From NCBI GenBank assembly GCA_964420015.1, contig CAYQPO010000005.1:6523-70522 (forward strand): a stretch of DNA of 64,000 nt, written 5' to 3'. Positions within the stretch are counted from its first letter, which is position 1. Each line of letters starts with the position of its first letter. Under the pieces are notes generated by a model, which did no database searches, was not told where the DNA came from, and saw only the letters and a program-made list of their open reading frames with translations. Source of the stretch: an uncultured Candidatus Saccharibacteria bacterium (GTDB lineage Bacteria; Patescibacteriota; Minisyncoccia; Phycocordibacterales; SBAW01). Both the position numbers and the translations under genes were made by a program. Positions 24,476 through 52,962 of this stretch are shown piece after piece.

Positions 24476-25624
24476 ATGGAAGGCTCAAGCAAAGGATGGC
24501 TCTGGGGCTTGATCATTATTATTGTGCTCGCCCTCGGCGGGTGGTGGTATAGCACACACAACATGGGCGGTTCTGCCGATAATGGTACTGGACCGATAAA
24601 GATTGGCCTGATAGCGCCACTTACTGGTGACGCCGCCACCTACGGCACCATGGACCAAAACGGAGCACAGCTCGCGGTTAAAGAAATTAATGCAGCTGGT
24701 GGTATTGCTGGCCGCCAGGTGGAACTCACCAGCGAGGACGGTAAGTGCACCGGACAAGATGGCTCAAGCGCCGCACAGAAACTCATTAGCACCGATGGTG
24801 TGAGGTACATCATCGGCGGCGGTTGTTCGGGAGAGACTTTTGCTATTGTGCCGATTGCCGAACAGGCTAAAGTGCTCGTGATATCTCCTTCGGCCTCGGC
24901 TCCTAAACTTGCGGGTATAAGCCCGTACTTCTTCCGCAACAACCCGAACGACAACATCCCCGCAGTTGGTCTTGCCGACTACGTTGCAAAGACATACAAG
25001 TCTGTCGCAGTGATATCTGAAAAGACTGACTACGCTCAGGGCTTCAAGGCGGTGTTCCTAAGCGAGGCTGGCAAAAATAATACGAAGATAACTGACACAG
25101 AAGACTACGACCCCACCGTGACCGATTTCCGCACTGTATTACTGAAAATGAAATCGACCAATCCTGGGGTTATCTTCATCAATCCACAGGCTGGTGCGAA
25201 TCTTGCCCGGGTAGCTACTCAGGCACGTCAGGCGGGTATTAATACGCCACTGGTGAGTGCGGTGTTCACCGGTCCAGAAGTGCTTTCTGCCGGCTCGGCA
25301 GTAGAGGGGATGGTGCTTGCCGTGCCGCAGGGCGTTTCGACGCAAGGGAAAGGACCAGAGTTTCTGACAAAATACAAGGCTACCTATAGTGCCGATCCGA
25401 TCTATCAACTATTTGCCGGTGCTGGATATGATGATGTATACCTTATTAAACAAGGTATCGAAGCAGTAGGGAATGATCCGAGCAAGGTTGCCCAATATTG
25501 GCACTCTCTCTCAAACTTCGATGGCGTCTTGGGTGCGTACCACTTCGATCAAAATGGTGACCCCGTAGGTATAACCTCTATCTTGCAAAAAATTCAGAAC
25601 GGCAAGGTAGTAGATGTGCAATAG
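24476..25624 (+). CDS. TM-anchored LivK-type (PF13458-like) ABC substrate-binding protein, SBP1
   Basis: N-terminal TM, then IKIGLIAPLTGDAATYG...AVKEINAAGGIAGRQVEL..DGKC...GGGCSGE, a typical branched-chain amino acid/amide-type SBP signature. Confidence 0.85.
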   Translation: MEGSSKGWLWGLIIIIVLALGGWWYSTHNMGGSADNGTGPIKIGLIAPLTGDAATYGTMDQNGAQLAVKEINAAGGIAGRQVELTSEDGKCTGQDGSSAAQKLISTDGVRYIIGGGCSGETFAIVPIAEQAKVLVISPSASAPKLAGISPYFFRNNPNDNIPAVGLADYVAKTYKSVAVISEKTDYAQGFKAVFLSEAGKNNTKITDTEDYDPTVTDFRTVLLKMKSTNPGVIFINPQAGANLARVATQARQAGINTPLVSAVFTGPEVLSAGSAVEGMVLAVPQGVSTQGKGPEFLTKYKATYSADPIYQLFAGAGYDDVYLIKQGIEAVGNDPSKVAQYWHSLSNFDGVLGAYHFDQNGDPVGITSILQKIQNGKVVDVQ

Positions 25625-25648
25625 AGTAGGGGAAAATTCACAAGCAAA

Positions 25649-25690
25649 ACCCCGTCCTGAGCAAGTCGAAGGGCGGGCTTTTGTTATTGT
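25649..25690. terminator. possible bidirectional terminator between SBP1 and regulator C
   Basis: CCCGTCC-N13-GGGCGGG (one GU) flanked by AAAA/TTTTGTTATTGTTT. Confidence 0.3.
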
Positions 25691-26451
25691 TTGAGCGTCG
25701 AGTCGACGTAGCGAAAAAGTTCTTTCATCATCTTGGCGATTTCTGCGTCCTTGACGAGGATTGCCAAATGCCCGCTCTCTCGGTACGACGCCATAAAAAC
25801 TTTGTCGTCATAAATCACCACCTCCATGTCGAACTGATAGCCAGGCGGCAGTAACTTCATGTCGCGCATCTGCTGCGGGTCGAGCGACTTAAATTTGCGG
25901 AGCGTCGGTGTGTCGGTCGCCACCGTGTAGGCATGGATGCCCGCGCTCGTTCGTTTGTTGATGTATGCGTTGATCCAGTCGTAGCCCATCGCCTCGAGCG
26001 TCACATCGCCGCCCAAAAACCCGTACATAACCTTGCCCTTGTTATGCTCGACAGTATCTTCATACGCTTGCTTGATTCCTTCAATGCCTTCGAAGTACTG
26101 TATCCGGGTTGTTTGATTGCTCCGCGTACGCAAAAGTTTAAGCTCGGGTAAAAGTTGATTAAGTTGCTTCTTGCTCTCCTCAAGCGCTGCCCGACGGCGT
26201 TCGAGATACCCGGGGAGCATTTCGGGGGCGATCGCTTGGAAGCGGGTTGCACCTTGCTTTTTAGTCTGAGAGACTAGCCCCAGTGCAGCAAGTTCGTGGA
26301 CAATATCGTAAGTAGTAGTGCGGTTAAGCTTTGCCTCCTTAGCTATCGCCGCGACCAGCATCGGACCGCTTTCGAGTAGCACGCTAAATACGGCGTTTTG
26401 TTTTTCGCTCAAATTGAGCACGTCGAGAGCTTTCTTAAGTGCGGGGATCAT
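25684..26451 (-). CDS. TrmB-family regulator (paralogue C)
   Basis: start taken at MIPALKK (the track starts at an upstream TTG); LNLSEKQNAVFSVLLESGPMLVAAIAKEAKLNRTTTYDIVHELAALGLV. Confidence 0.65.
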   Translation of the reverse strand: MIPALKKALDVLNLSEKQNAVFSVLLESGPMLVAAIAKEAKLNRTTTYDIVHELAALGLVSQTKKQGATRFQAIAPEMLPGYLERRRAALEESKKQLNQLLPELKLLRTRSNQTTRIQYFEGIEGIKQAYEDTVEHNKGKVMYGFLGGDVTLEAMGYDWINAYINKRTSAGIHAYTVATDTPTLRKFKSLDPQQMRDMKLLPPGYQFDMEVVIYDDKVFMASYRESGHLAILVKDAEIAKMMKELFRYVDSTLKQ

Positions 26452-26574
26452 AGCAAAATAGTTGTTGTGGAAAAGTACCGACAGTTTAGTGCAGAAATTG
26501 TTGACTGTCAAACAGGCTATGGTATTTTAGTGTTGCAGTTTTTAGTCAGGTTCGACTAACTAGGCTTATTTTAT

Positions 26575-27708
26575 ATGTCAACTTCACTTAAATGGGTTTG
26601 GGGGCTTGCCGTAGTGATTGTGGTCGCGTTCGGCGCCTATTACATCTCCAAAAATTCCCAGGATAACAGCACCGGTCCTATTAAAGTCGGCTTCATTGCG
26701 CCCCTCACTGGTGATGCCGGCTCTATTGGTGTCTCCATGCAACACGCTGTAGAACTCGCGGTTGATGAACAAAACGCCGCAGGAGGGATCAGTGGTCGCC
26801 CCGTACAGGTGATATACGAAGACGGCAAATGTGGCAAAGATGCTGCCAACGCCGCACAAAAACTTGTTAACGTGGACGGTGTTAAATACATTCTTGGCGG
26901 CGCATGCTCGGGTGAGACGCTCGCGGCCGCGCCAATCGCAGAGGCAAGCCGTGTGATCTTGTTTACGTCAGTATCCAGCTCACCGGATATTACTACCGCG
27001 GGCGATTATATCTTCCGCAATTTTGCTTCTGATTCGACTTCAGGTGAAAAGATTGCGCAAGCGGTCAATGCCCGCGGCTACAAAAAAGTGGCCGTTATCG
27101 CCGAACAGACCGACTACGCACAGGCGATCAAGAAAGTGTTTGAGACTAAATTCCAAGCGCTTGGCGGCTCGATTGTTGCAGACGAAGGGTATAACACCGA
27201 CAGCAAAGACTTTCGCACTACGCTCGCCAAGATCAAAACTTCCGGCGCAGATGCGCTCTACCTCATTCCGCAATCACCGGCGGCTGGGCAGATCTTGCTT
27301 GAGCAGGTCCGCGCTGCAGGCATCATCCTGCCGAAGTTCTCCAACGAGCTCGTAACCACGGATTCGTTCCTCAAATCAGGCGTGTCAGAGGGCATCACGT
27401 ATGCAGAAGTCGACTTCGATCAAAACGCGCCGCTTGCAAAACAATTCTTCGAAAAGTTTACTGCGCGTTTTGGAACACTCGATGCAAACACCCCACCTGT
27501 GTATCTCGCTTCGCAATATGATACCGCCAAGCTCCTCTTCGAAACTATTGCAAAGGCGGGGAACTCGGCCGATCAAGTAAAAGATGCTCTCTACAAAGTA
27601 AGCGGCTGGCAAGGCACCGCAGGCACGGTGACCATGGACAAAAACGGCGACGCCGTAAAATCCTACACGCTCAAAGTAATTAAAGACGGAAAAGCAGTTA
27701 CACTCTAG
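26575..27708 (+). CDS. TM-anchored LivK-type substrate-binding protein, SBP2
   Basis: IKVGFIAPLTGDAGS...DEQNAAGGISGRPVQV..DGKCG...GGACSGE. Confidence 0.85.
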   Translation: MSTSLKWVWGLAVVIVVAFGAYYISKNSQDNSTGPIKVGFIAPLTGDAGSIGVSMQHAVELAVDEQNAAGGISGRPVQVIYEDGKCGKDAANAAQKLVNVDGVKYILGGACSGETLAAAPIAEASRVILFTSVSSSPDITTAGDYIFRNFASDSTSGEKIAQAVNARGYKKVAVIAEQTDYAQAIKKVFETKFQALGGSIVADEGYNTDSKDFRTTLAKIKTSGADALYLIPQSPAAGQILLEQVRAAGIILPKFSNELVTTDSFLKSGVSEGITYAEVDFDQNAPLAKQFFEKFTARFGTLDANTPPVYLASQYDTAKLLFETIAKAGNSADQVKDALYKVSGWQGTAGTVTMDKNGDAVKSYTLKVIKDGKAVTL

Positions 27709-27728: not shown

Positions 27729-28595
27729 ATGGACATCGTCGTCCAAATTATCCTCAACGCCGTCATCGCAGGCGCGATCTATGCGCTGCTTGCGCTCGGG
27801 TTTAATCTCCTCTACTCAACAGCGCGCTTCTTCGACTTAGGCTACGGCGCGATGACGGCGGTCGGAGGCTACTCGGTTTTTTGGCTCTACAAAATGGTCG
27901 GGTTGCCGCTGTGGCCCGCGATCATACTCGGTGTTGCCCTCACCGGCGTGTTGGGGTTTGTGGTGGAGAAGGTGGTCTACCGACCGCTGCGCTTGCGCAA
28001 AGCGTCTAACACCGTGCTCCTCATCGCCTCGCTCGGCGTGCTCACGGTCTTGCAAGCAGTGATCGCGATCCTCTTTAGTAGCCAGTTTCAAACGCTTGCC
28101 AAAGACATCGGCTCCGTTCAAACCTATCAACTCTTTGGCGGCGTGATCACGCAGACGCAGGTGCTCATCTTGGTGGGCGCGCTCGTCGTTATGGCGGCGC
28201 TCGGCCTCGTACTCAAATACAGCCGCGTGGGCAAAGCGGTACGCGCGGTCGCCGACGACGAAGAGGTTGCCAAAATTGTTGGGGTCAACACCGAAATGAT
28301 TATCGGCGGCGTGTTTTTTGTCGGCGCGCTCATCGGCGCGCTCGCCGGAGTGAGTGTAGGCTTCGACACCGGCGTGCAGCCAACAATGGGGCTCTCGCTC
28401 CTTTTAAAAGCGATCGTCGCCTCGATCATCGGCGGGATTGGGAGCGTATGGGGTGGGGTGTTGGGCGCGTTTGTACTTGCACTGATTGAAAACCTCGGCG
28501 CATGGCAGTTTAGCGGCGAGTGGAAGGACGCGATCGCATTCGCAGTTCTTATTCTTTTCCTTTTATTCAGGCCGCAAGGGATCCTAGGAAAATAA
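27729..28595 (+). CDS. livH: branched-chain amino acid ABC transporter permease LivH-type
   Basis: 288 aa, about 8 TM; LivH-type motif region (EKVVYRPLR; ...ALIENLG). Confidence 0.8.
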   Translation: MDIVVQIILNAVIAGAIYALLALGFNLLYSTARFFDLGYGAMTAVGGYSVFWLYKMVGLPLWPAIILGVALTGVLGFVVEKVVYRPLRLRKASNTVLLIASLGVLTVLQAVIAILFSSQFQTLAKDIGSVQTYQLFGGVITQTQVLILVGALVVMAALGLVLKYSRVGKAVRAVADDEEVAKIVGVNTEMIIGGVFFVGALIGALAGVSVGFDTGVQPTMGLSLLLKAIVASIIGGIGSVWGGVLGAFVLALIENLGAWQFSGEWKDAIAFAVLILFLLFRPQGILGK

Positions 28596-28630
28596 ATCCG
28601 AAACCCGAAGCACGAAATCCGAAACAAATT
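28596..28630. repeat. left inverted repeat flanking the four-helix-bundle gene
   Basis: CCGAAACCCGAAGCACGAAATCCGAAACAAA; its reverse complement recurs, with small indels, at 29012-29062. Confidence 0.5.
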
Positions 28631-28634
28631 TTAA

Positions 28635-28991
28635 ATGGAAAAAATCAAAAATAAAAAACGCTACGACTTAGAGGACAGGACGCGTGCGTTTGCCCGAGAT
28701 GTACGATTGTTTGTAAGGTCGTTACCCAAAAACCAGGCCAACTTTGAAGATAGCAAGCAACTCGTGCGCTCTTCTGGTTCAGTTGGGGCAAATTACATAG
28801 AGGCAAACGAATCATTGAGTAAAAAAGATTTTCTGCTGCGTATTCGTATTGCTCGTAAAGAAGCCAAAGAGAGCCAATACTGGCTCGAGCTCCTCGACGC
28901 GACTGGGGCCGAAGAGACATGCAAAAGGCTAGCCCAAGAAGCAAAAGAACTTATGATGATACTGAGTGCGATTATGCGGAAGTCAGAATGA
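28635..28991 (+). CDS. four-helix-bundle protein (23S rRNA intervening-sequence protein family, PF05635-like)
   Basis: 118 aa; ...FARDV..LFVRSLPKNQ....QLVRSSGSVGANYIEA....SKKDF...RIARKEAKESQYWLELL... matches the family pattern from memory. Confidence 0.75.
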   Translation: MEKIKNKKRYDLEDRTRAFARDVRLFVRSLPKNQANFEDSKQLVRSSGSVGANYIEANESLSKKDFLLRIRIARKEAKESQYWLELLDATGAEETCKRLAQEAKELMMILSAIMRKSE

Positions 28992-29011
28992 CTATATGTT
29001 TACTCTTTTGA

Positions 29012-29062
29012 ATTTTCGGATTTGTCTGTTGTTTCGGATTTCGAATTTCGTGCTTCGTGCTT
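29012..29062. repeat. right inverted repeat (TTGTTTCGGATTTCGAATTTCGTGCTTCGTGCTT) plus internal TTTCGGATTT direct repeats
   Basis: read in sequence. Confidence 0.5.
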
Positions 29063-29070: not shown

Positions 29071-29937
29071 ATGGAATATTTAATCCACATCGCGATTTTG
29101 GTTTGCATATACGGCTTACTCGGCCTCTCGCTCAACTTGGTGATGGGGGAGGCGGGCCTGGTCTCGGTTGCACACGCAGCGTTTTTTGGGATTGGGGCCT
29201 ATGGGGCGGCACTCCTCATCACCGACTTTGGGGTCAACTTCTTTCTAGCGCTCTTGTTTGGCATGGCACTGAGCGCTGCAGCGGCGCTGGTCATCGGGCT
29301 CGTGCTCTCGCGCTTTAGAGGTGACTTCTACGTGCTTGGCACGGTGGGCTTCAACATTATTGTCTGGAGCATCATGCTCAACTGGCAAGGCGTTACGCAC
29401 GGCCCATTGGGCATCCCCGGCATCGCGCGGCCCGAAATATTTGGATTTGTCTTTGGAGAAAATCTCCACTTCCTCGTGTTGGCCGCGGCGTTTTTGGCGC
29501 TTACCTACGGCGTGTGTGTTTTTATCACCCGCTCGTCGTTTGGTCGCGTACTCAACGCCATCCGCGAAGACGAGGAGGCTATCTCAGTATTCGGCTATGC
29601 CACTGCGCACTACAAACTGCTGATCTTCTGCATCAGCGCGGCGCTCGCGGCGGTCGCCGGAGCGCTCTTTGCCAGCTACATCACCTTTATCGACCCCTCG
29701 AGCTTTACGCTCAACGAGTCAATTTTCATCCTCTCAATCGTCATCTTGGGCGGCTTGGGGAGCAGCCGCGGCGCGCTTTTGGGCGGACTCTTTTTGATCG
29801 TGTTGCCGGAGGCGCTGCGTTTTGTCGGCTTCCCCCCAGACATCGCGGCGCAAATGCGCCAGCTGGTCTATGGTTTAATTTTGATTCTCCTCATGCTCTA
29901 TCGGCCCCAAGGGTTGTTGGGTACGTTTAGGTTGTGA
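29071..29937 (+). CDS. livM: branched-chain amino acid ABC transporter permease LivM-type
   Basis: 288 aa multi-TM; LSLNLVMGEAGLVSVAHAAFFGIGAY LivM-type signature. Confidence 0.8.
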   Translation: MEYLIHIAILVCIYGLLGLSLNLVMGEAGLVSVAHAAFFGIGAYGAALLITDFGVNFFLALLFGMALSAAAALVIGLVLSRFRGDFYVLGTVGFNIIVWSIMLNWQGVTHGPLGIPGIARPEIFGFVFGENLHFLVLAAAFLALTYGVCVFITRSSFGRVLNAIREDEEAISVFGYATAHYKLLIFCISAALAAVAGALFASYITFIDPSSFTLNESIFILSIVILGGLGSSRGALLGGLFLIVLPEALRFVGFPPDIAAQMRQLVYGLILILLMLYRPQGLLGTFRL

Positions 29938-30008: not shown

Positions 30009-30725
30009 ATGTTGCAAGACATCTTTTGGGCCGCCCTGCACTGGACGGCTGAGTATCAAAATTGGGACTGGGGCATTTACAGCCTCAACATCGCGCTCAT
30101 GATCGTGTTTACCTACGTCGAGACCTGGGGGATCATCCGCCAAGGCCGCACGATCTATGAAAAGCGCAGCACAGAAGCGGTGGAGAGCGAATTGTTTTTC
30201 TACTGCTTCTTCTACTTCTTGCTCTGCGGGCTCTACGGGGTGCGGTTGCATGGCGTGGTGATCGTGCTCAACTCGATCATCACCGCGATTGCACAGCTCT
30301 ACGTACTGCGTGCCATTCTCCACTTCCGCCCCTTTAGCGAGCGAGAGCGGCGGATCGGTTCGGTGTACGCGCTCATCCCCGGCCTACAACTCTGGGGGAT
30401 GTCCGGAGGCTTTGATGGTTGGGTGTACATCGTCTTTGCCATCGGGATGTGGTGGGCACTCTTCGAACAGTTGCGCAAACTCTGGGCAGAGTGGGTGGTG
30501 GGCGCGGTAGAGGTCAAACTCTATTTCGTCTATTTAGGCACCTGTTTTGTCTGGGCGGCGTACGCGTTCTACATCGGTGACACGTTCTTCGAGACCTCGA
30601 TGGTTGGCGCTACGGTGATTATTGCGTCGATCATCTTGCTGTGGTTCGCGATTCTTGCCGGAGCGCCTAAACCGCGCTTGCCCGCTCGGATACGCAAGCG
30701 GCTCGATGAGATCCTGATGCGTTGA
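30009..30725 (+). CDS. hypothetical multi-pass membrane protein
   Basis: 238 aa, about 7 TM; strong SD AGGAGGAGG; no family recognised. Confidence 0.45.
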   Translation: MLQDIFWAALHWTAEYQNWDWGIYSLNIALMIVFTYVETWGIIRQGRTIYEKRSTEAVESELFFYCFFYFLLCGLYGVRLHGVVIVLNSIITAIAQLYVLRAILHFRPFSERERRIGSVYALIPGLQLWGMSGGFDGWVYIVFAIGMWWALFEQLRKLWAEWVVGAVEVKLYFVYLGTCFVWAAYAFYIGDTFFETSMVGATVIIASIILLWFAILAGAPKPRLPARIRKRLDEILMR

Positions 30726-30745
30726 ACTACGAAGAAGTTTCGAGA

Positions 30746-30778
30746 GGCCCCGCCAAGTCGGCGGGGCCTTTTGGTTTT
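30746..30778 (+). terminator. intrinsic terminator
   Basis: GGCCCCGCC-AAGTC-GGCGGGGCC + TTTTGGTTTT. Confidence 0.5.
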
Positions 30779-30780: not shown

Positions 30781-31593
30781 TTAGGTTTTTATCTCGTTGG
30801 GAATAACAAAATGCTTACTGAGCCGTTTGCGGAGGCGGAGTGCCTTTTTGGCATTGCGTTCGAGTTTAAATTTGTACCGATGCGGCTGGGCAAGAGCCTG
30901 GGCGACTCGGTGCGCAAGTTCTGTGTGATCTTTTGATTCCCTGTAAGCTTTGTGCACAGATTCAAATAGCTTCTCGTCTATCTTGCCATTGAGGACATAG
31001 TCACCAAAAACAGAGGTGTTATCCAAGTCAGAAAAGAAAGAGACTTTTTCAAAATTAATCTGAAATGCCCCGCCTCCATATGTCCGAGCAAAAGATTTAT
31101 CGAGAGTGGTTGGGTAGCCGATTGTATAAAACATCGGTATCTTGTGTCGCTTAACATAAGCAAAAAAATCTTCCTCGCTCTTTCTGCGATCGGGTATGTG
31201 GATCCAAAACTCGTGCGGATTGTAACAAAAAAGACCTGTGCGCTTTGATTCGTGCTCGAGCAAAAATGCGTAGTGCTTCCACAGCTTATCCATCTGCGCA
31301 GCAGAACCGACTTCAAACGCAACACTTTCACCCTCTTTAAGTTCCAGGCCGGCATAAGTACCCAAGAGGTCCGAAACATTTTTTCTCCATTCGGTATTTA
31401 TTGAAAAGATGCCTCTCGAGCGGATCACAACGTCGGCCGCTTGGAGCCTGTCCAGAGCTTTGTAGAGCCCGGACGTGCTCAAGTTTAGACCTTGAGCTCT
31501 CAGAATGTTTTGTAATTCTCTGGCCGTTGTAGGCTCCTCAAGTAAGGTCTCGATGATGCGATCCGGGGTTTTTGGATTAGGCGTATGTAACAT
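30781..31593 (-). CDS. winged-helix transcriptional regulator (TrmB/MarR-like N-terminus; paralogue D)
   Basis: RIIETLLEEPTTARELQNILRAQGLNLSTSGLYKALDRLQAADVV wHTH; C-terminal domain unassigned. Confidence 0.45.
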   Translation of the reverse strand: MLHTPNPKTPDRIIETLLEEPTTARELQNILRAQGLNLSTSGLYKALDRLQAADVVIRSRGIFSINTEWRKNVSDLLGTYAGLELKEGESVAFEVGSAAQMDKLWKHYAFLLEHESKRTGLFCYNPHEFWIHIPDRRKSEEDFFAYVKRHKIPMFYTIGYPTTLDKSFARTYGGGAFQINFEKVSFFSDLDNTSVFGDYVLNGKIDEKLFESVHKAYRESKDHTELAHRVAQALAQPHRYKFKLERNAKKALRLRKRLSKHFVIPNEIKT

Positions 31594-31597: not shown

Positions 31598-31614
31598 TTC
31601 TACTAAAAGTAGAA
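31598..31614. promoter_or_regulatory. palindrome TTCTACT-AAA-AGTAGAA (contains TACT-N3-AGTA) 4 nt from regulator D start, about 30 nt upstream of SBP3
   Basis: read in sequence; TACTN3AGTA is, from memory, the TrmB operator core in the Thermococcales TM promoter. Confidence 0.4.
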
Positions 31615-31643: not shown

Positions 31644-32810
31644 ATGGCGCAAGGGCCCTCTCTACTATGGCCCTGCATGAACAGAAATACCTTAATTCTT
31701 GGCCTTATTGGGGTGGCGACCGTCGGCGCTGTCGCGTGGCTACTGTTATCTCATGTCGGCCCACTGAGGACCCAAACAGCCTCTGTAGGCACTGCCGAGC
31801 CAATTAAAGTTGCGGCGCTTCTTTCATTGACCGGAGTTGCGCCGGCGTGGGGCGAGAACGCACGGCGAGCTATCGAGCTCGCCGTAGAGGAAACAAATGC
31901 AGCAGGCGGTATTAATGGCCGACCGGTTGAGATGTTGTATGAAGACACCGGCGCCGACCCTAAGAAAGCAGTCTCAGCGTATCAACTCGTAACCTCGGTT
32001 GATAAGGTGGCCGCGGTCATTGGGCCCCTGCAACAAACCGAAGATGTCGCGGTCATGCCGGTCATAGCAGAGACTGGTACGCCAACCATTGTGCCTGGCT
32101 ACATACCGCTTCAAAATCGCTCCAACGTGGACAATCCTCTGTTGATTTGGATGGACGCGCAAGTTGAGGCGGCGCGCGTGGCGCAGTACATGTATGGCCA
32201 GGGGATCCACACAGTTGGTGTCGTGGGGACACTCGACAGTTGGGAGACTACCGTGTCGGACGCATTTGTTGACGCGTTTAAAACTGCAGGCGGGACAGTC
32301 ACTGAGGTTGAGATCGTACAGCCAAACTCAAACGACATCCGACTGCCAGTGACAAAAATTGTCGCCACTAAACCACAAGCAATATTTCTGGGTACGTACT
32401 ACCAGTTTGTTAATGCAACGAAAGAGCTTCACGACTTCGAGTATACAGGGCAACTCTATAGTATTGAGGTTGATAATTATCTGGCTGCTCAGAGTGTTGG
32501 TTGGGTGAGGGATATAAAGTTTATAGCGCCGGATTATTACACTACTGACTTTGTAAAAAAGTTTAAAACAAAATATGCTGCCGCACCCGGACTTCCTGCT
32601 GGGCAAGCCTATGATGCGGCAAATCTCCTCTTCTCACTATTAAAAAAGAGCACCAACAAAAATGACGTTCTCAACGAGATGAAGAACTTCAAGCAATATG
32701 ACGGCGTCTCCGGAGAGTTGACTGTGGCAACCGACGGACGCACCGCCCTACCTACCGCTTTGTTCGAACTCAAAGCGGGAGAGGTGGTCAGAGTATCTGC
32801 CTTGCCGTAG
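31644..32810 (+). CDS. TM-anchored LivK-type substrate-binding protein, SBP3
   Basis: IKVAALLSLTGVAPAWGE...VEETNAAGGINGRPVEM. Confidence 0.8.
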   Translation: MAQGPSLLWPCMNRNTLILGLIGVATVGAVAWLLLSHVGPLRTQTASVGTAEPIKVAALLSLTGVAPAWGENARRAIELAVEETNAAGGINGRPVEMLYEDTGADPKKAVSAYQLVTSVDKVAAVIGPLQQTEDVAVMPVIAETGTPTIVPGYIPLQNRSNVDNPLLIWMDAQVEAARVAQYMYGQGIHTVGVVGTLDSWETTVSDAFVDAFKTAGGTVTEVEIVQPNSNDIRLPVTKIVATKPQAIFLGTYYQFVNATKELHDFEYTGQLYSIEVDNYLAAQSVGWVRDIKFIAPDYYTTDFVKKFKTKYAAAPGLPAGQAYDAANLLFSLLKKSTNKNDVLNEMKNFKQYDGVSGELTVATDGRTALPTALFELKAGEVVRVSALP

Positions 32811-32842: not shown

Positions 32843-33214
32843 TTGAGACACAAGCTGCAAGAAAAGAGCGTTGTAGACCGCGTACTAGCGTGCCTAATTC
32901 CGACCTGTGGAGCAATCGCCCTCATTTCGATCTTACTCGGTACCTACGAACAGAGTGGATCAACACGCTCCCTACTATGCATTATTACTGTTCTCTCTTT
33001 ACTTCCCCCGGGCGTGCTCGGGTATGGGTGCATATTGGGGCGACTGCATAACTGGATGGACAAGTCACGATGGAGGAGTGTGCTTGTAGAAGCCGCGCTG
33101 CTACTTGCAATTATCTCCCTTGGTGGACTACTCATTTGGTGGTTTGACATCGCAAACCCGCCAAGACTATGCCACCTCCAAGGCCCCGCGTACGCGGGGC
33201 CTTTTTGTTTTTAA
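32843..33214 (+). CDS. hypothetical membrane protein
   Basis: 123 aa, 3-4 TM segments. Confidence 0.35.
   Translation: MRHKLQEKSVVDRVLACLIPTCGAIALISILLGTYEQSGSTRSLLCIITVLSLLPPGVLGYGCILGRLHNWMDKSRWRSVLVEAALLLAIISLGGLLIWWFDIANPPRLCHLQGPAYAGPFCF
33182..33212 (+). terminator. intrinsic terminator
   Basis: GGCCCCGCG-TA-CGCGGGGCC + TTTTTGTTTTT. Confidence 0.5.
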
Positions 33215-33235: not shown

Positions 33236-34381
33236 ATGAAGAAAAACTTTTGGATAGGTGGTGTCGTCATAATTATTTTGATAGCCGGCGGGTATTTTTT
33301 GTTTAACAAATCACGGCAAGCAAATGGAGAGGCCATAAAAATTGGCACCATTTTTGCTCAGAGCGGAGATGCGGCGTATTGGGGTGTTGATGAGGAGCGC
33401 GCAGTAGAGCTGGCGGTAGATGATGCAGACGCGAACGGTGGTATCAACGGCAAACCAATTCAAATTGTTGCAGAAGATGCTCCGGCTATAGACTCGATCC
33501 AAAAAGCGGTGAGTGGGATCCAAAAGCTCATCAACGTGGACCATGTCGTCGCGGTCTTGGGCCCTACTTGGGATGACAACGCGCAAGCGGTAGCACCTTT
33601 GGCAGACCGATTTAAAACCGTGATGATTAGCGCATCGGCCTCCGCTTCAGCAGAGCAGAAAGAGGATTACAAATTCTTTTTCTCTACCAATTTGCCTGAG
33701 CAGTCTGAGATCGAACGCATAACACAATACGCACAAGAAAAAGGATACACAAAAGTGGCGGTCATCAACACGAGCGACACTTTTAGTTTGCTCTACGGCG
33801 ACAGCTTTGCAAAACATGGCGCGAGTCATAGAATAACGGTGGCCAAACATATCATTATTAATGACACGAGCCCTAAGGATTTTCGGACATATATTGCAAC
33901 GCTGAAAGATGCGCAGATCGACGCGGTATACGTAGTGCTCGACGATGAAGGTTCGAAGTGCCCCTTCCTCGAGCAAGCCAGAGAGCTCGGATTGAATAAG
34001 CCGATACTGAGTAGCATCTCGACGCAGAGCCCCGACTCGCTGCAAAAGTGCGGCTCAGTCATGAGTCAGGTGAGTTACACCTATCAAAAGCAGGGACCGG
34101 AGTACGACGCGCTCATTAAAAAGTACGAGGCAAAATATCATGCCGAACCGAGCGGCCCTGCGATCACCGAAGCGTATGATGCGGCAAACATTCTCATTAC
34201 CCAAATGCGGGCGGGCAATCTCTCTGGCGAGCAACTGCGAAGCGGGATCGCCGCTATGAAAAATTTCTCTGGGGTAACCGGCTCGGGGATGAATTGGGAC
34301 GCAATAGGACACATCACACTCCCTGCAAGCGACTTCAACATTAAAACGGTTAAAGACGGACAGTTCGTGGTGGTCGAATAG
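33236..34381 (+). CDS. TM-anchored LivK-type substrate-binding protein, SBP4
   Basis: start taken at MKKNFW (track begins at TTG 33218); IKIGTIFAQSGDAAYWG...DDADANGGINGKPIQI. Confidence 0.8.
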   Translation: MKKNFWIGGVVIIILIAGGYFLFNKSRQANGEAIKIGTIFAQSGDAAYWGVDEERAVELAVDDADANGGINGKPIQIVAEDAPAIDSIQKAVSGIQKLINVDHVVAVLGPTWDDNAQAVAPLADRFKTVMISASASASAEQKEDYKFFFSTNLPEQSEIERITQYAQEKGYTKVAVINTSDTFSLLYGDSFAKHGASHRITVAKHIIINDTSPKDFRTYIATLKDAQIDAVYVVLDDEGSKCPFLEQARELGLNKPILSSISTQSPDSLQKCGSVMSQVSYTYQKQGPEYDALIKKYEAKYHAEPSGPAITEAYDAANILITQMRAGNLSGEQLRSGIAAMKNFSGVTGSGMNWDAIGHITLPASDFNIKTVKDGQFVVVE

Positions 34382-34666: not shown

Positions 34667-35065
34667 ATGAAGTTCCGTTACAAGAAGTACGGTACTGCAC
34701 TTCGCCCAGTAATAGAAATTCGATTAAAAAATAAAGAGCAATCGATCCGCTACGAAGTCCTCGTGGACTCAGGAGCGGACATTTGCATATTTGACGAAGA
34801 AGTTGGCCAAGCTTTGGGTATAGATGTACACAAGGGAGTGGCAAAAGAAGTATTCGGCGTGGGAGGAAAATCTTCGGTCTTTTACCTCCATCCTATTACT
34901 ATTGAAGTCGGCGGGTGGTCGTATGATATAAAAGCGGGCTTCATGGCGAAAGTCAGCGGCTACACGACTCCTTACGGCATTGTAGGACAGGAGGGATTTT
35001 TTGATATCTTTACTGTTAAGTTCGATCTATTAAAAACAGAGATCGAAATAAAGAAAAGAGGCTAA
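34667..35065 (+). CDS. retropepsin-like (clan AA) aspartic protease
   Basis: 132 aa; VLVDSGADICIFD active-site D-S/T-G-A motif; ...GIVGQEGF. Confidence 0.6.
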   Translation: MKFRYKKYGTALRPVIEIRLKNKEQSIRYEVLVDSGADICIFDEEVGQALGIDVHKGVAKEVFGVGGKSSVFYLHPITIEVGGWSYDIKAGFMAKVSGYTTPYGIVGQEGFFDIFTVKFDLLKTEIEIKKRG

Positions 35066-40449: not shown

Positions 40450-40833
40450 ATGATTGCTCGAACCATCAGGGGAGCCGAAAAGAAGGCGGCCAAGGAACGT
40501 AGAAAAGGCTACGACGCCAAGGAAAGACTCTCTGTTCGCATGGACCGAGTCCGGGAGAGGTGCCCCGATCTCGCGGGCAAAAGCGACGAAGAGCTTTTTA
40601 TCGAGGCTTGTGGCGATACCGAACAAGGCAAGGCCGACTTTAAAGAAGCGCGCGAACGCGGCGGAGAGCATGAGACCATGGACGCCTTCTGCAACAGCCG
40701 ACTTGCAACGACCAGCGAGCGAGAGCAGGGCGCCACCACCAATGCTCCGGGCGACACCGCGCCAGCAGCGCAGTTTGGAGACACCGGCCTTTTGCTCAAG
40801 CTCAAGAAAAAGTTCAAAAGGAAGGGTGAATGA
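40450..40833 (+). CDS. hypothetical charged protein
   Basis: 127 aa, Lys/Glu-rich; no motif recognised. Confidence 0.35.
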   Translation: MIARTIRGAEKKAAKERRKGYDAKERLSVRMDRVRERCPDLAGKSDEELFIEACGDTEQGKADFKEARERGGEHETMDAFCNSRLATTSEREQGATTNAPGDTAPAAQFGDTGLLLKLKKKFKRKGE

Positions 40834-40840
40834 AGAAAAA

Positions 40841-40876
40841 GAGCCCCGCTGGCCGCGGGGCTCTTTCTATTTTCTT
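40841..40876. terminator. bidirectional intrinsic terminator
   Basis: GAGCCCCGC-TGGCC-GCGGGGCTC + TTTCTATTTTCTT, A-rich upstream. Confidence 0.5.
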
Positions 40877-47592: not shown

Positions 47593-48646
47593 TCTGCTGC
47601 TGCCTAAAAAAGAGAGTGTTTCTCCTGACACCGCAAGCCGAGTAAACGCAGCCGCGCTCTTAGCACAAGAGCAGCAGGCGGAGCTGCAAAAGCCCGAACC
47701 ATCAAAACCTGTGGCCATTGTGCAACCAAAAGCGCCGGAGAGCACGGTCAAGCCGCTTGAGACTTTTCGCAGCGACATCGAACGCGCGGTCCAGGGTGGC
47801 GCCTCGATCGTGACTATTGCTGCAGCCGAGGCCGACCGCCGCGCACAAGGGGGCAGAGCGCCTGAGGCAAAAGCTGCCGATCCTCACTTGTGGCGCCATA
47901 TCGGTTACCTAGCCGCAGGATTGGTGCTTTTGTGCGCGGCGGGCGGAGTGCTCCTGTATTTGTTGAGCAAAACGGCGCCGCTACCGGTTGCGCAGACACC
48001 GCAAGCGCCATTCATTTCGGTTGATGAAACCAAGGTTATCAGCGAGCCGGCAAACCCCACACGCGACCAACTCATGACCGACTTGACTGCTGCTAAACAA
48101 AAAGTTGCCCTCTCCGTAGGACTCGTCGAGTGGCTCTACCCCGCGCAGCAAAATGCCTCGACCAGTGCGCAGGAGGGCATCCCTGCGGCGCAGTTTTTGC
48201 AAACCCTCGCGCCAACCATCCCCGGAGAACTCTTGCGCACGCTTGAGCCGACCTACCTGGTGGGCGTGCACTCGTACGACCAAAACCAGCCTTTTTTGCT
48301 CTTGACGGTCGACAGCTACGAGGTGGCCTACGCAGCAATGCTCCAGTGGGAGCGCACCATGGAGTCTGACCTGTTGCCTTTCTTTAACCGCGACCTCTCT
48401 CCGCAATTGCCGTCGCAGCAAAGCCCCGACCTTGCCACCACGAGCCAAGCGTTTGTCCCCAGCAATTTTGTCGACCAGGTGGTAGAAAATCGCGACACGC
48501 GCGTGCTCTTTTCTGACCATGGCGACCTCAAACTTTTGTGGACCATGCTGGGGCGCAACACTATCCTCATCACCACCAACAAATACACCTTGCGCGAGGT
48601 GATCTCACGCATGAACCAAGCACCCACGATTCCTGCAACACCCTAA
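47546..48646 (+). CDS. hypothetical TM-anchored protein
   Basis: track ORF overlaps the pnp 3' end by 47 nt, so the true start is probably an internal alternative codon; one TM (YLAAGLVLLCAAGGVLLYLL). Confidence 0.35.
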   Translation: MPPQEPNTPKPLDPSSLLLPKKESVSPDTASRVNAAALLAQEQQAELQKPEPSKPVAIVQPKAPESTVKPLETFRSDIERAVQGGASIVTIAAAEADRRAQGGRAPEAKAADPHLWRHIGYLAAGLVLLCAAGGVLLYLLSKTAPLPVAQTPQAPFISVDETKVISEPANPTRDQLMTDLTAAKQKVALSVGLVEWLYPAQQNASTSAQEGIPAAQFLQTLAPTIPGELLRTLEPTYLVGVHSYDQNQPFLLLTVDSYEVAYAAMLQWERTMESDLLPFFNRDLSPQLPSQQSPDLATTSQAFVPSNFVDQVVENRDTRVLFSDHGDLKLLWTMLGRNTILITTNKYTLREVISRMNQAPTIPATP

Positions 48647-49398
48647 CGAACAGTCTCCCAAAGCGTTTTAAAAAGCTCTCGCAGATCGTGCGCCAGAGGA
48701 GCGTCGTGGATCTCTACCAAATAGTACGGTTTGTGGCGCGTGTTCACCGTTACTAAGTAGTCGCCCATAACCCAGATGCCTGATACAAAATTTGCTTTGG
48801 GCCATGGCCGCATCTCGCGGCGAGGATATTTTTTAGTGAGTTTGAGTTCTGCGGCCGATATGTTGGTCAACATCTTTAATCTGATTTGCTTGGCATTTTT
48901 CCTCCAATACAATTCTATTGCATCGGTGTATTGCTCGACGTAGGTGTGGTCTTGGAAGCCCCACATGATCGTATCGTAGCGGAGCATGCTGCTGTCCCAT
49001 TTGTAGGCCTCTTCTTTCAAAAATTGGCGAATCTTTTCTTCGGGGATAAAGCGGATCTGCGGCACCGGGTAGGTCTTCTCAGCTTCGTTTTTGGTGAGCT
49101 CCTCGGCCAGTTGTTTAAAAATTTTTTCTCGGACATTCAGACGTTTCTTCTCCTCGGCTATGAGCCCTTGCACCGCGCCGGGGGAGGATGGGCTAAAGAG
49201 GCGGGGACGCTTTGATGCATCTTCCACCAAGAGACCCTTCTCCACCAGAGTACGAGCAATAGAGTAAGCCGTGGTGCGCTTGATACCTGTGGCCCGCGCG
49301 AGCATGACCGGGCTTGCAACACCCATTTTGAGCACCACTCTATAGAGTTTTATTTCTTTGTGATTGAGGCCGAAGGCGGCGAGAAGCTTCTCGTTCAT
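48643..49398 (-). CDS. TrmB-family regulator (paralogue G)
   Basis: start taken at MNEKLL; FGLNHKEIKLYRVVLKMGVASPVMLARATGIKRTTAYSIARTLVEKGLL. Confidence 0.65.
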   Translation of the reverse strand: MNEKLLAAFGLNHKEIKLYRVVLKMGVASPVMLARATGIKRTTAYSIARTLVEKGLLVEDASKRPRLFSPSSPGAVQGLIAEEKKRLNVREKIFKQLAEELTKNEAEKTYPVPQIRFIPEEKIRQFLKEEAYKWDSSMLRYDTIMWGFQDHTYVEQYTDAIELYWRKNAKQIRLKMLTNISAAELKLTKKYPRREMRPWPKANFVSGIWVMGDYLVTVNTRHKPYYLVEIHDAPLAHDLRELFKTLWETVR

Positions 49399-49490: not shown

Positions 49491-50609
49491 ATGAAAAGTA
49501 TTTTTATAGGCGCAGCGGCTCTTGTTGTGATCGCTGGTGGTCTTTATTTCTATACCCGAACAAGCGGCGGCTCTGCAGCGGCGCTTTCTAGCGACTCAAT
49601 CAACATCGGGTCAATCCTGATTTTAAGCAATAGCTATGCTGCAGAAGATGGTGAAAATCACCAAAAAGCGATCGACTTGGCTGTTGAGGAGATCAACGCC
49701 AAGGGCGGCATCGAGGGTAAGCCGGTGGTGGTCGACCATCAAGACCAAAACGGCGACAACCCTCAGGGCGCGGTAAATGCACTGCGGGCTCTGCAGAGCA
49801 GGGGCATTGGGCTCATCATTGGCCCTATGTTTGCTCCTGCCGCGAGTGCACTCGCGCCTATTGCCGAACAAGAGCATATTGTGCTTATTAGCGGCAGCAA
49901 TGGATCAGAAAAGTTTGCACCTGCAAGCGCCTATACTTTTCTTACCCAAATGGCGAGCCAGGGGCTCAGCTATGATCTGGCCGACTATCTGTATAAAAAA
50001 GGCTACCGCAAAATCGCCATACTTGGCTCACAACAAGAATGGGAGCACAGCCAAGCGGACTTCGTTGCTGAAGAATTTGAAAAACTTGGTGGTGTAGTGG
50101 TTGCTAAAGAGCTACCGCTTATGACTAATCTGGACCTGCGCGACGAGGCGCTTAAAATTAAACAAGCCCACCCTGAGGCGCTCGTGTTCACTAACTACGG
50201 CGAGGTAATGATCGCAGCTCTGCGCATGCGTACGTTAGATATAACTGCGCCGTTTTACAGTGTCGCGCTGGGCAACGAAAAGGTCGCCGAAGCTCAAGGT
50301 GCACTCGAAGGAGCGATCTATGTCGATTCAAACTCTCCGCAATCGGCGTTTACCCAAAAGTTCGAGCAACGCTATGGCATAAAACCGGTCTCGGGAGCCG
50401 ATGCGGCCTACGACGCCACCAGTATGCTCATGTATGCAATAGCCCAGGCACGCTCTACAGATCCTGAAAAAGTAAAAAATGCGCTCATGCAGATAAAAAC
50501 TTGGGATGGCGCATCGGGCATGCTCACCTTCGACCAATATGGTGGCGCCATCAAAGAACCTCGGTTCTTTATCGTGCGCGGCAATACCATTGTGTCCTAC
50601 ACGCCCTAA
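49491..50609 (+). CDS. TM-anchored LivK-type substrate-binding protein, SBP7
   Basis: start taken at MKSIFIGAAALVVIAGG; INIGSILILSNSYAAEDGE...EEINAKGGIEGKPVVV. Confidence 0.75.
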   Translation: MKSIFIGAAALVVIAGGLYFYTRTSGGSAAALSSDSINIGSILILSNSYAAEDGENHQKAIDLAVEEINAKGGIEGKPVVVDHQDQNGDNPQGAVNALRALQSRGIGLIIGPMFAPAASALAPIAEQEHIVLISGSNGSEKFAPASAYTFLTQMASQGLSYDLADYLYKKGYRKIAILGSQQEWEHSQADFVAEEFEKLGGVVVAKELPLMTNLDLRDEALKIKQAHPEALVFTNYGEVMIAALRMRTLDITAPFYSVALGNEKVAEAQGALEGAIYVDSNSPQSAFTQKFEQRYGIKPVSGADAAYDATSMLMYAIAQARSTDPEKVKNALMQIKTWDGASGMLTFDQYGGAIKEPRFFIVRGNTIVSYTP

Positions 50610-50978: not shown

Positions 50979-52103
50979 TTATTTGAGCGGGACGAGAACT
51001 CCGTTCTTTACCGTTTCTATTTTCACAGGGGTTGAGTCGACTGCGTGATTTTCGTTGAATTGCACCTTGCCAAGCGGTGTGTCGAAGGTGTGTGTAGCAA
51101 CGTACTGTCCGACTTCCGCACGATCTTTACTGCGGGCAACCGCCTGCACAAGAATATACACCGCTGCATAACTTTTATCAGCCGACTTAGTGGGCACGGC
51201 CCCATAAGCAGCCTGATATTCCTCGATGAAATTGGGTGTACTAAACTCCCAGTCAAGAATCGTTGCATTTTCGATGAGAGCCTTGTCCGCACCAGCGTCG
51301 GTAAACGAATCTGTAAGCCCGTTATACCCGACGACCGCCGGGTGGAAATCGAGGTCCCTCGCCTGGCGCAAAAACGTGAGCGGGTCCTCAACCACCATAT
51401 CGAGAAACACAGTGTCGACGTTTTGCTGCTTTAATTTTAAAATAAGCGTACGGAAGTCGTTTCCTCCGATCTGTGGGTATGACTCGTCGATCACGGGTGG
51501 GCGTCCAAGTTCCTGCATCACTCCCGAGAGTGTGGTCACTATCTCTTGGCCGAACACCGACTTGAAGTGTACGACCGCAAGCTTTTGCGTATTGCTTTTC
51601 GCTATATGGCCCTCCAGCTCCCGAATTACCGAGCTAAACGATGGCAACATGACAAACGAGTACGGGGTGAGTTTGAAATCGCCTGGTATATAGAAATTGG
51701 TAGGAGAGATAAGTGTCGTCTGAGAGCTGTCCGCGATGGGCAGGAGCGGCTGCGTGGCGAAATCGAACATGCCACCCACAATTGCATCGACACGATCGAC
51801 GCTCACGAGCTTTTGAAACCCCGATACAGCTTCTTTGGGGTCGGTGTGGTCATCCTCGATATACAGTTCAACCTTACGCCCATCGATACCACCATTTTTG
51901 TTGATATCGTCGACCGCAAGCTGGATGCTCTTATGCGCCTCTTCGCCAAAGGCAGCGGCTACGCCCGTTTGCGAAAGTAGGGCACCAATCTTAATGGGGT
52001 TATTCGTTTGTTGGGCAGAAAAGGAACTCCCTTTGTATACAAGCCCCGCACCGACGAGGACCACAACGATGATGCCTGCTGCCCATATAAATTGCTTTTG
52101 CAT
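50979..52103 (-). CDS. TM-anchored LivK-type substrate-binding protein, SBP8
   Basis: IKIGALLSQTGVAAAFGE...DDINKNGGIDGRKVEL. Confidence 0.8.
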   Translation of the reverse strand: MQKQFIWAAGIIVVVLVGAGLVYKGSSFSAQQTNNPIKIGALLSQTGVAAAFGEEAHKSIQLAVDDINKNGGIDGRKVELYIEDDHTDPKEAVSGFQKLVSVDRVDAIVGGMFDFATQPLLPIADSSQTTLISPTNFYIPGDFKLTPYSFVMLPSFSSVIRELEGHIAKSNTQKLAVVHFKSVFGQEIVTTLSGVMQELGRPPVIDESYPQIGGNDFRTLILKLKQQNVDTVFLDMVVEDPLTFLRQARDLDFHPAVVGYNGLTDSFTDAGADKALIENATILDWEFSTPNFIEEYQAAYGAVPTKSADKSYAAVYILVQAVARSKDRAEVGQYVATHTFDTPLGKVQFNENHAVDSTPVKIETVKNGVLVPLK

Positions 52104-52128
52104 GAACTATAATGTACTCAACAAAACG

Positions 52129-52148
52129 GACTATGTCAATATATAGTC
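52129..52148. promoter_or_regulatory. inverted repeat GACTAT-GTCAATAT-ATAGTC between SBP8 and regulator H
   Basis: read in sequence; a GCCTATC..GATAGGC hairpin + T6 follows at 52181-52202. Confidence 0.35.
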
Positions 52149-52224
52149 ATGATTTTATTTCTCCTATTAGTAGATTGAAAGGCCTATCTGATAGGCTTTT
52201 TTCTGTGCTATAGTCGTAAAAAGA

Positions 52225-52962
52225 ATGACTGACTATATTAACAGTGCGCTCAAAGCCGGTCTCTCCCCTAAGGCAGGAGCTGTTTATGTGGCATTGCTGG
52301 AAGCGGGTGCGGCATTGGCCCCCAAAAATATCATCACCAAAACGAAACTCTACAGACAATACGTATACGACGCCTTGCACGAGCTTGCGGACAAGCGGCT
52401 CATAACCACCGAGGGCGAAGGCCGCAGCATACGGTACTTAGCGGTAAGCCCAGATACATTACTACAAGAAGTGGAGAAGAAACGTATTGATACGCTTGAG
52501 GGAGTACAAAATCTTTTACACCTGTATGACAGATCTCCCGCTGGAGTTGTAGATATCGTCCGGGGCAATCGAGCGGCAATCGAGTACGACCTGCAACAAA
52601 TCCGAGACGCTCACGAAGGAGACTTTCTTGATGTGATCGGCGGCGGGGGCTTGCACTGGGTCCGCATGTTTGAAGCATCGGGGCGTATGGAAGAATGGGA
52701 AGCCTTGCGCAAGAAAAAGAACGTCAAAATCCGCTACATTGGTGTCGGCGAAGATGTCCGATTTAATAGAGAGCAAAGCATCAGTGAAAACGAATCGCGA
52801 ATCATACCGGGGATAGGGGACCTGGTGAGCGTCGTGATCCGCAAAGATAGCGTCACCTTCGATATGTATGACCCCGAAGCGATTTATGTGAGAGTAAAAA
52901 GCAAAGCTGCGGCAGCGAGCCAGCGCGCATTATTTGAAGTTTTGTGGCAAGCTGCTAAATGA
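52225..52962 (+). CDS. TrmB-like winged-helix regulator (paralogue H)
   Basis: LSPKAGAVYVALLEAGAALAPKNIITKTKLYRQYVYDALHELADKRLI; TATAGT 10 nt upstream of ATG; stop overlaps the start of the next gene. Confidence 0.55.
   Translation: MTDYINSALKAGLSPKAGAVYVALLEAGAALAPKNIITKTKLYRQYVYDALHELADKRLITTEGEGRSIRYLAVSPDTLLQEVEKKRIDTLEGVQNLLHLYDRSPAGVVDIVRGNRAAIEYDLQQIRDAHEGDFLDVIGGGGLHWVRMFEASGRMEEWEALRKKKNVKIRYIGVGEDVRFNREQSISENESRIIPGIGDLVSVVIRKDSVTFDMYDPEAIYVRVKSKAAAASQRALFEVLWQAAK

Follow-up and report, generated by a model that had tools for sequence, protein, structure and literature searches.

A 64-kb stretch of DNA from an uncultured bacterium of the Candidate Phyla Radiation (CPR, or Patescibacteria; contig CAYQPO010000005.1 of assembly GCA_964420015.1), hereafter the window, carries the genes of one Liv-type ATP-binding cassette (ABC) translocator together with eight substrate-binding proteins (SBPs, S1–S8), eight regulators of a TrmBL2-like family, and a ninth, putative regulator of uncertain family (R1–R9). 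We infer transport, ligand specificity, and regulation from these genes and read the locus, which belongs to an auxotrophic bacterium of ultrasmall size, as an importer of the Liv type with an unusually large set of individually regulated receptors. With moderate confidence, we favor a model in which the one translocator would serve many membrane-tethered receptors and each receptor would be controlled locally. An earlier note on this DNA, made without database searches (the original prediction), had already named an array of receptors sharing one translocator as a possibility, and this is still the most economical reading.

Searches with Pfam models found livH, livM, livG, and livF in one copy each, as had been predicted; this and all other single-copy counts hold within the window.

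27729..28595, plus strand: livH, permease (PF02653; 427–459 bits to orthologues in the related loci L012, L013, L092, and L093)
29071..29937, plus strand: livM, permease (PF02653, 171 bits)
35067..35801, plus strand: livG, ATPase (ABC_tran and BCA_ABC_TP_C, the LivG-type C-terminal motif)
39669..40382, plus strand: livF, ATPase (ABC_tran, 119 bits)

The LivG protein is 64–84% identical to many LivG proteins of Paceibacteria. By their domain matches, the PF13458 SBPs, two PF02653 permeases, and two ATPases correspond to the livKHMGF parts of an HAAT-family ABC importer.

The eight SBP open reading frames (ORFs) all match PF13458 at 80–211 bits, against a gathering score of 31.7, with S5 and S6 being the weakest.

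24476..25624, plus strand: S1, LivK-type SBP with an N-terminal transmembrane anchor (PF13458, 211 bits)
26575..27708, plus strand: S2, SBP heading the livH-livM unit (PF13458, 184 bits)
31644..32810, plus strand: S3, SBP with a diverged pocket (PF13458, 164 bits)
33236..34381, plus strand: S4, SBP upstream of livG (PF13458, 154 bits)
36718..37707, plus strand: S5, short SBP of 329 residues (PF13458, 80 bits, N-terminal half only)
38573..39664, plus strand: S6, SBP heading the livF unit (PF13458, 108 bits; ORF start also given as 38567)
49491..50609, plus strand: S7, remote SBP (PF13458, 167 bits)
50979..52103, minus strand: S8, remote SBP (PF13458, 181 bits)

S5 aligns end to end on a hidden Markov model (HMM) of the SBP family, and an HMM built from the eight sequences found no ninth SBP in the window. 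Each protein begins with a short charged stretch, followed by one hydrophobic helix, a short linker, and the conserved motif PI(K/R)(I/V)G, which is preceded by TG in S1 and S2. The helix design is identical in SBP homologues from other CPR genomes, and a lipobox cysteine after the hydrophobic segment was found neither in the eight SBPs nor in these homologues. The eight SBPs are presumably extracellular, each held in the membrane by its N-terminal helix. These results agree with the predicted set of eight paralogous, membrane-anchored, lipobox-free SBPs of the PF13458 type.

The SBPs share only 23–38% identity with one another. In a neighbor-joining tree, S1 groups with L012_8761, the single SBP of the compact L012 operon, S2 groups with L013_10767, and S4 forms a clade with L013_2055, L013_714, and L011_8754, each with a bootstrap value of 100. 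Because of the low identity and these three groupings with other genomes, we regard the paralogues as old and the set as assembled from old lineages and not by recent tandem duplication; the tandem diversification raised in the original prediction is unsupported.

To compare the binding pockets, we used what we take to be the E. coli LivJ sequence and its ligand-contact residues, which fall at the expected positions in that sequence. In an alignment of about 25% identity, S1, S2, and their relatives keep the LivJ-like residues C78-S79, S/T102, and Y150, and S2 keeps E226 as well; the LivJ ligand-contact residues are not kept in S3–S8. S1 and S2 probably bind amino acids because they retain the contacts for the alpha-amino and carboxylate groups, and the ligands of S3–S8 may differ because their pockets have diverged. 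Among the four SBPs searched against the PDB (S2, S3, S4, and S8), the relatives found are generic HAAT binders that do not separate ligand classes; the best relatives of S2 are Leu/Ile/Val binders.

The absence of LivJ-type contact residues from S3–S8 is compatible with another arrangement, in which only some SBPs (S1, S2, and perhaps S4) would serve LivHMGF, and S3 and S5–S8 would feed a translocator encoded elsewhere or trap ligands at the cell surface. S7 and S8 lie 9–12 kb from the liv genes, S8 adjoins R6 and a gene of the major facilitator superfamily (MFS), and orphan regulator-SBP modules with no transporter nearby occur in loci L011 and L056. Against such partial service, S4-type and S6-position SBPs directly precede livG and livF in the window, L092, and L093. 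Furthermore, the window contains no second PF02653 gene, and the SBPs examined are all closest to HAAT binders in the PDB. We consider partial service possible, if unlikely, and retain the translocator shared by all eight receptors as the preferred reading.

The second component of the locus is the set of regulators. Six SBP genes are divergently paired with a regulator gene (R1-S2, R2-S3, R3-S5, R4-S6, R5-S7, and R6-S8), exactly the six pairs originally predicted. S1 and S4 have no divergent regulator, and the upstream neighbor of S1 is an Exo_endo_phos gene. Apart from R2, which is described separately below, the regulators are as follows.

25684..26451, minus strand: R1, TrmBL2-like regulator of 255 residues (PF01978, 40.8 bits; identical to library protein P0001)
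35786..36589, minus strand: R3, TrmBL2-like paralogue related to R8 (no Pfam match; leave-one-out HMM E-value of 6e-15 over the full length)
37708..38475, minus strand: R4, TrmBL2-like regulator (PF01978, 31 bits)
48643..49398, minus strand: R5, TrmBL2-like regulator (PF01978, 42 bits)
52225..52962, plus strand: R6, TrmBL2-like regulator (PF01978, 24.5 bits against a gathering score of 25.6; leave-one-out HMM E-value of 1.5e-26)
3715..4470, minus strand: R7, further paralogue (PF01978, 48.5 bits)
15846..16658, plus strand: R8, further paralogue (PF01978, 27.5 bits)
21256..22071, minus strand: R9, further paralogue (PF01978, 30.4 bits)

PF01978 is a general winged helix-turn-helix (wHTH) family, matched above the gathering score by six of the nine regulators; R6 falls just under it, and R2 and R3 have no Pfam match. 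With leave-one-out HMMs, eight of the nine (R3 included, R2 not) were recovered as full-length paralogues over about 245 residues. None of the nine matches the TrmB effector domain PF11495, which includes the sugar-binding subdomain, and the NCBIfam TrmB models match the regulators in their N-terminal part only, far under the cut-offs.

We modeled R1 with AlphaFold (AF2) from an alignment of 27 sequences and compared the model with the PDB using Foldseek. The model has a mean predicted local distance difference test (pLDDT) score of 92. Its wHTH is followed by a helix of 35 residues and then by an alpha/beta domain, and it ends after a phospholipase D (PLD)-like domain. The top eight PDB matches are all TrmBL2 chains (5bpd/5box; 252–267 columns, E-values of 3e-14 to 2e-12), and the next matches are the PLD-fold proteins NucT, F13, and PLD3, which align with the C-terminal domain. 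As modeled, R1 has an architecture like that of archaeal TrmBL2, with a wHTH, a dimerizing coiled coil, and a non-catalytic PLD-like domain and no sugar-binding subdomain; the fold was modeled for R1, and the paralogues are tied to it by their full-length HMM matches. No conserved H/K/D catalytic residues were found in the regulator alignment. The alignment does contain an invariant tyrosine, which we matched to the DNA-recognition residue Tyr50 of TrmB (PMC4158304) by our own correspondence, TrmB itself being outside the alignment. The 70 sugar-binding residues are likewise missing from TrmBL2 (PMC4158304). The original prediction of TrmB-type wHTH regulators is thus borne out for most of the nine and not for R2. 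It had also pointed out the oddity of sugar-type TrmB proteins beside amino-acid SBPs; this mismatch falls away because the regulators share the DNA-binding head of TrmB, not its sugar sensor.

R2 requires separate treatment.

30781..31593, minus strand: R2, putative regulator of uncertain family, divergent from S3

No match to R2 was obtained with Pfam, NCBIfam, or the leave-one-out HMMs, and a profile-profile comparison with the regulator family (hhalign) gave a probability of 62% over 180 columns. Its AF2 model, built from a four-sequence alignment, is unusable (pLDDT of 39.5). The R2 orthologue in Candidatus Taylorbacteria (L011) is also divergent from an SBP gene. From its sequence, R2 is not callable as TrmB-like.

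The regulator family extends far beyond this locus. It comprises 12,567 clusters (50% identity) at E-values of 1e-10 or below, and when species-representative genomes were scanned with an alignment of R1 orthologues, 80 regulator loci were returned, nearly all labelled Patescibacteria. The family would serve many neighbor types, and the link to SBPs is a recurrent minority use, because an SBP lies within 10 kb at just six of the 80 loci. Regulators of the window also pair with non-SBP genes: R8 is divergent from a radical-SAM gene (14610, minus strand), and R6 is followed by the MFS gene (52963–54147). Many relatives are 500–1079 residues long with three to seven matched stretches (e.g., library proteins P0163, P0165, and P0172), and their lengths step by about 135 residues, which suggests one wHTH with tandem PLD-like domains. 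In a full-text literature search, we found no paper tying TrmB-type regulators to Patescibacteria or CPR.

Next to the regulator genes, we identified two candidate operators.

26463..26483, no strand assigned: candidate R1 operator TGTTGTGGAAAAGTACCGACA (pattern TGTTG-N11-CRACA, sole site in the window)
31598..31614, no strand assigned: candidate R2 operator TTCTACTAAAAGTAGAA, a perfect 17-nt palindrome containing TACT-N3-AGTA

An alignment of the R1-SBP spacers of four genomes, with regulators 39–59% identical to R1, showed an invariant block TGTTGT-G...C-ACA that holds the pattern TGTTG-N11-CRACA. Of 32 R1 orthologue loci, 22 have this pattern 26–107 nt ahead of the regulator start; in all, the fetched loci (1.21 Mb) contain it 28 times. 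The candidate operator overlaps the predicted -10 box and transcription start of R1, which suggests that R1 represses itself; the distance from it to the start site of S2, which lies downstream, is about 60 nt. The 17-mer of R2 recurs unchanged ahead of the R2 orthologue in L011 and, in the window, falls between the -35 and -10 boxes of the predicted S3 promoter. The TACT-N3-AGTA sequence is the published TrmB site (PMC4158304) and occurs once in the window, at this candidate operator. An R6 orthologue in L037 (302 bits) has the conserved upstream block ATGTCAATAYATAGTCAT, and the R4 upstream region also keeps a conserved block relative to its orthologue.

The resemblance to TrmBL2, which binds coding as well as intergenic DNA (PMC4158304), raises the question of whether the regulators are nucleoid or chromatin proteins, that is, general DNA binders that adjoin SBP genes incidentally, particularly as most family members are not beside an SBP. 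We consider this very unlikely in view of the nine divergent paralogues within 64 kb, the private palindromes conserved just upstream of orthologues across genomes, and the divergent pairing that recurs across genomes. Gene-specific local regulators remain our preferred interpretation.

Promoter-like sites of the sigma-70 type were scored as matches of 12 consensus positions. Sites with 10 matches lie upstream of S1 (24394), S2, S6 (38536), S7 (49452), S8 (52139), and R1, and sites with nine matches upstream of S3, R3, R4, and R6. Strong terminators follow the SWEET-like gene downstream of livM (15 pairs, 30740–30774), the small ORF x123 after S3 (hairpin at 33180–33203), and x127 after livF (40838–40866). 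Together, these signals suggest the transcription units S1; S2-livH-IVP-livM-SWEET; S3-x123; S4-AspP-livG; S5; and S6-livF-x127, where IVP and AspP stand for the intervening-sequence-protein and aspartic protease ORFs described below.

In the model we favor, all eight SBPs would dock on the same LivHM of the one LivH-LivM-LivG-LivF translocator. Six SBP genes have a divergent promoter region in common with a regulator gene of their own, and each regulator would bind its own palindrome there, thereby regulating itself and gating its SBP unit; the signal to the regulator may act through the PLD-like domain. Because livHM, livG, and livF are predicted to be transcribed in three units behind S2, S3/S4, and S6, respectively, transporter output would depend on several regulators.

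Several observations weigh against this model. The genome may carry other liv translocators outside the 64 kb. R1 orthologues keep the candidate operator in genomes with no SBP nearby, which marks autoregulation as the conserved feature and leaves control of the SBP genes putative. Likewise, some orthologues of R4 and R6 have no SBP beside them. A TTGAC-N-GTCAA repeat in the R1 spacer may simply consist of two divergent -35 boxes that overlap. For the S4-livG unit, we detected no promoter, and a terminator-like hairpin lies just upstream of S4. The tie of R2 to the regulator family is weak, consisting of the profile match and its putative operator, and the pocket comparison depends on the low identity to the presumed LivJ sequence.

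The tight pairing of SBP and regulator genes also fits the notion of SBPs as anchored sensors, raised in the original prediction; such SBPs would pass signals to the regulators and deliver no substrate for transport. SBP-dependent signaling is known from other bacteria. However, the cytoplasmic N-termini of the SBPs are just a few residues long and carry no signaling domain, no kinase or chemoreceptor gene was seen nearby among the Pfam-scanned ORFs of the window, and the predicted regulators are soluble proteins of the cytoplasm. Moreover, SBP genes directly precede transporter genes. With no evidence for it and no signaling partner seen, we hold a purely sensory role to be highly improbable and return to receptors that would deliver their ligands to LivHMGF.

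The genomic context indicates how this layout relates to those of other CPR bacteria. The backbone of the window is syntenic with Kaiserbacteria and other contigs and runs RNase Y ... CCA enzyme, Exo_endo_phos, a variable slot, Xer, NYN, PNPase, DksA, and ComM (with S15 after Xer in relatives).

23569..24375, minus strand: Exo_endo_phos gene (PF03372), left edge of the variable slot
40867..41763, minus strand: Xer-type tyrosine recombinase (PF00589 and PF02899), right edge of the variable slot

The content of the slot varies by genome, and the loci compared can be arranged in grades.

Grade 0, L006/L037 and L010: regulators and small ORFs only
Grade 1, L012/L008, L041, L040, and L063: a compact regulator plus SBP-livH-livM-livG-livF
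Grade 2, L093: a one-strand interleaved operon, S-H-M-x-S-S-G-S-F (S, SBP; H, M, G, and F, the liv genes)
Grade 3, L092: interleaved with internal regulators, H-M-S-S-G-R4 orthologue (opposite strand)-S-F

Both boundaries of the slot were seen in L006/L037, L010, L041, and L092; in L012 the slot-neighbor genes are present in a different order, and for L040, L063, and L093 neither boundary is in the fetched flank. The window is the most elaborate of these grades among the loci compared. It shares with L092 an S4-type SBP before livG and an R4-type regulator with an SBP before livF; the R4 orthologue of L092 (260 bits) occupies the same place, between livG and the SBP-livF unit, and L092 also has an R7 orthologue (359 bits). 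Locus L013 from Nomurabacteria contains at least eight SBPs in 20 kb together with livH-IVP-livM as in the window. The original prediction described the liv genes as dispersed, with regulator/SBP modules and foreign cassettes between them. A scattering by foreign cassettes does not agree with the interleaved order that recurs in L092, L093, and partly L013: the intervening genes are not all foreign, since SBPs before livG and livF recur in related genomes, and the scattering is typical of the lineage. Outside the slot, L006 and L010 lack R5-S7 between their x366 and DksA genes, and S8-R6-MFS is missing from the matching backbone positions of these two loci.

Three side observations concern related loci. 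The slot of L006/L037 (Kaiserbacteria, 6100–11600) contains four TrmBL2-like regulators and small ORFs of no recognized family, with no transporter. At 5495–5965 of L092, just upstream of livH, lies an S2-like fragment (148 bits; ORF of about 150 residues) that resembles a decayed SBP gene. In another relative (the ENA contig with P0068), livM and livG are separated by an inserted HepT/MNT pair and MazE-like gene, and livG is not followed by livF.

The metagenome assembly GCA_016853205.1 and two assemblies of separate read sets contain genes identical to those of the window, which rules out an artefact of assembly as the source of the arrangement. R1, R2, and LivG have homologues named from Paceibacterota/Parcubacteria groups such as Kaiser-, Nomura-, Doudna-, and Taylorbacteria, and on these names the CPR host is probably a member of the Paceibacteria/Parcubacteria. 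The GC content at third codon positions (GC3) is 0.66–0.73 in the liv genes, 0.565 on average in the SBP and regulator genes, and 0.62 in other genes; the low value of the SBP and regulator genes, against 0.69 for the liv genes, is suggestive, and we do not take it as proof of horizontal origin. Around the regulator-SBP modules, we found neither long repeats nor the ends of an element, and recent duplication or a recognizable mobile element is therefore unsupported.

Among the closest known systems is E. coli LivJ/LivK-LivHMGF (HAAT, TC 3.A.1.4), whose five components belong to the Pfam families found in the window and which has more than one SBP per translocator; S1 and S2 keep several LivJ contact residues, and the best PDB relatives of S2 bind Leu/Ile/Val. 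The window differs in having eight SBPs instead of two, in tethering them to the membrane where those of E. coli are free in the periplasm, and in interleaving SBP and regulator genes among livM, livG, and livF. Control would also differ, being local and TrmBL2-like in the window, whereas E. coli Liv is controlled by Lrp.

Paralogous binding proteins with one ABC translocator have been reported for Borrelia burgdorferi Opp (five OppA), Pseudomonas aeruginosa DppA1-A5/DppBCDF, and Rhizobium BraC3 with BraDEFG; Borrelia, moreover, has a reduced genome, is auxotrophic for amino acids, and regulates its binding proteins individually (PMC5736914, PMC7822543, PMC4206461, PMC2978685). The window resembles these systems in its several SBP paralogues per translocator, provided that the translocator is indeed shared. 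Opp and Dpp belong to another transporter family, Bra excepted, and none of Opp, Dpp, and Bra has regulator-per-SBP modules or SBPs among the ATPase genes.

On the regulatory side, TrmB is a local repressor of an ABC-importer operon whose first gene encodes the SBP (PMC4158304). Like TrmB, the repressor of the trehalose/maltose operon of Thermococcus litoralis and Pyrococcus furiosus, the regulators of the window have a PF01978 wHTH with the recognition tyrosine, would act locally on an ABC operon with an SBP gene first, and have palindromic candidate operators, that of R2 containing the TrmB motif. Unlike TrmB, they lack PF11495 and a sugar-binding C-terminal subdomain, operate in a bacterial host with sigma-70-type promoters, and are partnered with a HAAT rather than a sugar system. 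The best full-length match to the R1 model is TrmBL2 (TK0471/PF0496; 5bpd, 5box), with a similar length of about 255–264 residues and the same order of wHTH, long helix, and PLD-like domain. Identity is, however, only 16–18%, and TrmBL2, abundant in chromatin, shows little preference for particular sequences (PMC4158304), whereas the CPR proteins are many paralogues, each with a candidate specific operator.

Among the liv subunits lie several further genes and elements.

28599..29062, plus strand: intervening sequence (IVS)-like insert between livH and livM (PF05635 ORF at 28635–28991, 60 bits; inverted repeats)
30009..30725, plus strand: SWEET-like membrane protein of 238 residues (PF03083, two MtN3_slv stretches; at least four hydrophobic segments)
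32843..33214, plus strand: x123, possible small protein with three transmembrane segments, gene status uncertain (no Pfam match; three hydrophobic segments)
34667..35065, plus strand: retropepsin-like aspartic protease ORF (PF13650, 27 bits; VDSGA motif)
40450..40833: x127, following livF (terminator at 40838–40866)

The arms of the IVS-like insert (28599–28650 and 29006–29057) are inverted repeats of about 50 nt. In L013, a PF05635 ORF with an identical inverted-repeat core GAAGCACGAAATCCGAAA is again found between livH and livM (6082–6567). PF05635 denotes the 23S rRNA intervening sequence protein, a four-helix bundle, and the insert resembles an rRNA intervening-sequence stem, which would be a substrate of RNase III, yet stands within an mRNA operon. 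A diversity-generating retroelement was considered for this Avd-like ORF and rejected, as we found no reverse-transcriptase match among the Pfam-scanned ORFs and no template/variable repeat pair among the repeats at 22–56 kb. The SWEET-like gene is the last of the predicted S2-livHM unit and may encode a doubled SWEET-like protein, bacterial SemiSWEETs usually having about 100 residues. The stop of the aspartic protease ORF abuts the livG start, and its GC3 is 0.44.

Elsewhere in the window, Pfam matches also include the PNPase, DksA-type zinc-finger, and ComM-type (Mg-chelatase-like) genes, which together with the Xer-type recombinase gene identify the host as bacterial, and the Rfam matches are four tRNAs only. 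Upstream of R9, 780 bp (22072–22849) contain no ORF of at least 100 residues; part of this stretch is GC-rich and possibly structured, and the stretch gave no Rfam or tRNA match. A weakly matched LpxC-like protein (PF03331, 36 bits) is conserved in these CPR genomes, its gene lying between those for NYN and PNPase (window, 44421–45272; L006, 15486–16265); such bacteria are thought to have no outer membrane.

Several SBPs per importer are already established, and the gain here lies in the regulators and the layout, with no new principle. A broader reading, which we put forward tentatively and regard as doubtful, would be that CPR bacteria use an expanded bacterial TrmB/TrmBL2 branch as their main gene-specific regulators, with private palindromes and the PLD-like domain as a small-molecule sensor, and that modules placed inside a single Liv translocator result in combinatorial control by ligand-specific regulators. 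If true, such combinatorial control of transporter assembly would be a regulatory logic not described for ABC importers. The most useful products of this analysis are the candidate operators and the three layout grades (compact, interleaved, and interleaved with internal regulators), together with a very large, uncharacterized regulator family, found mainly in CPR genomes, with sequence-defined candidate operators. Having no amino-acid biosynthesis, Patescibacteria rely on uptake (PMC11665869), and the locus offers a concrete, testable model of how these bacteria may choose and regulate the nutrients that they import.

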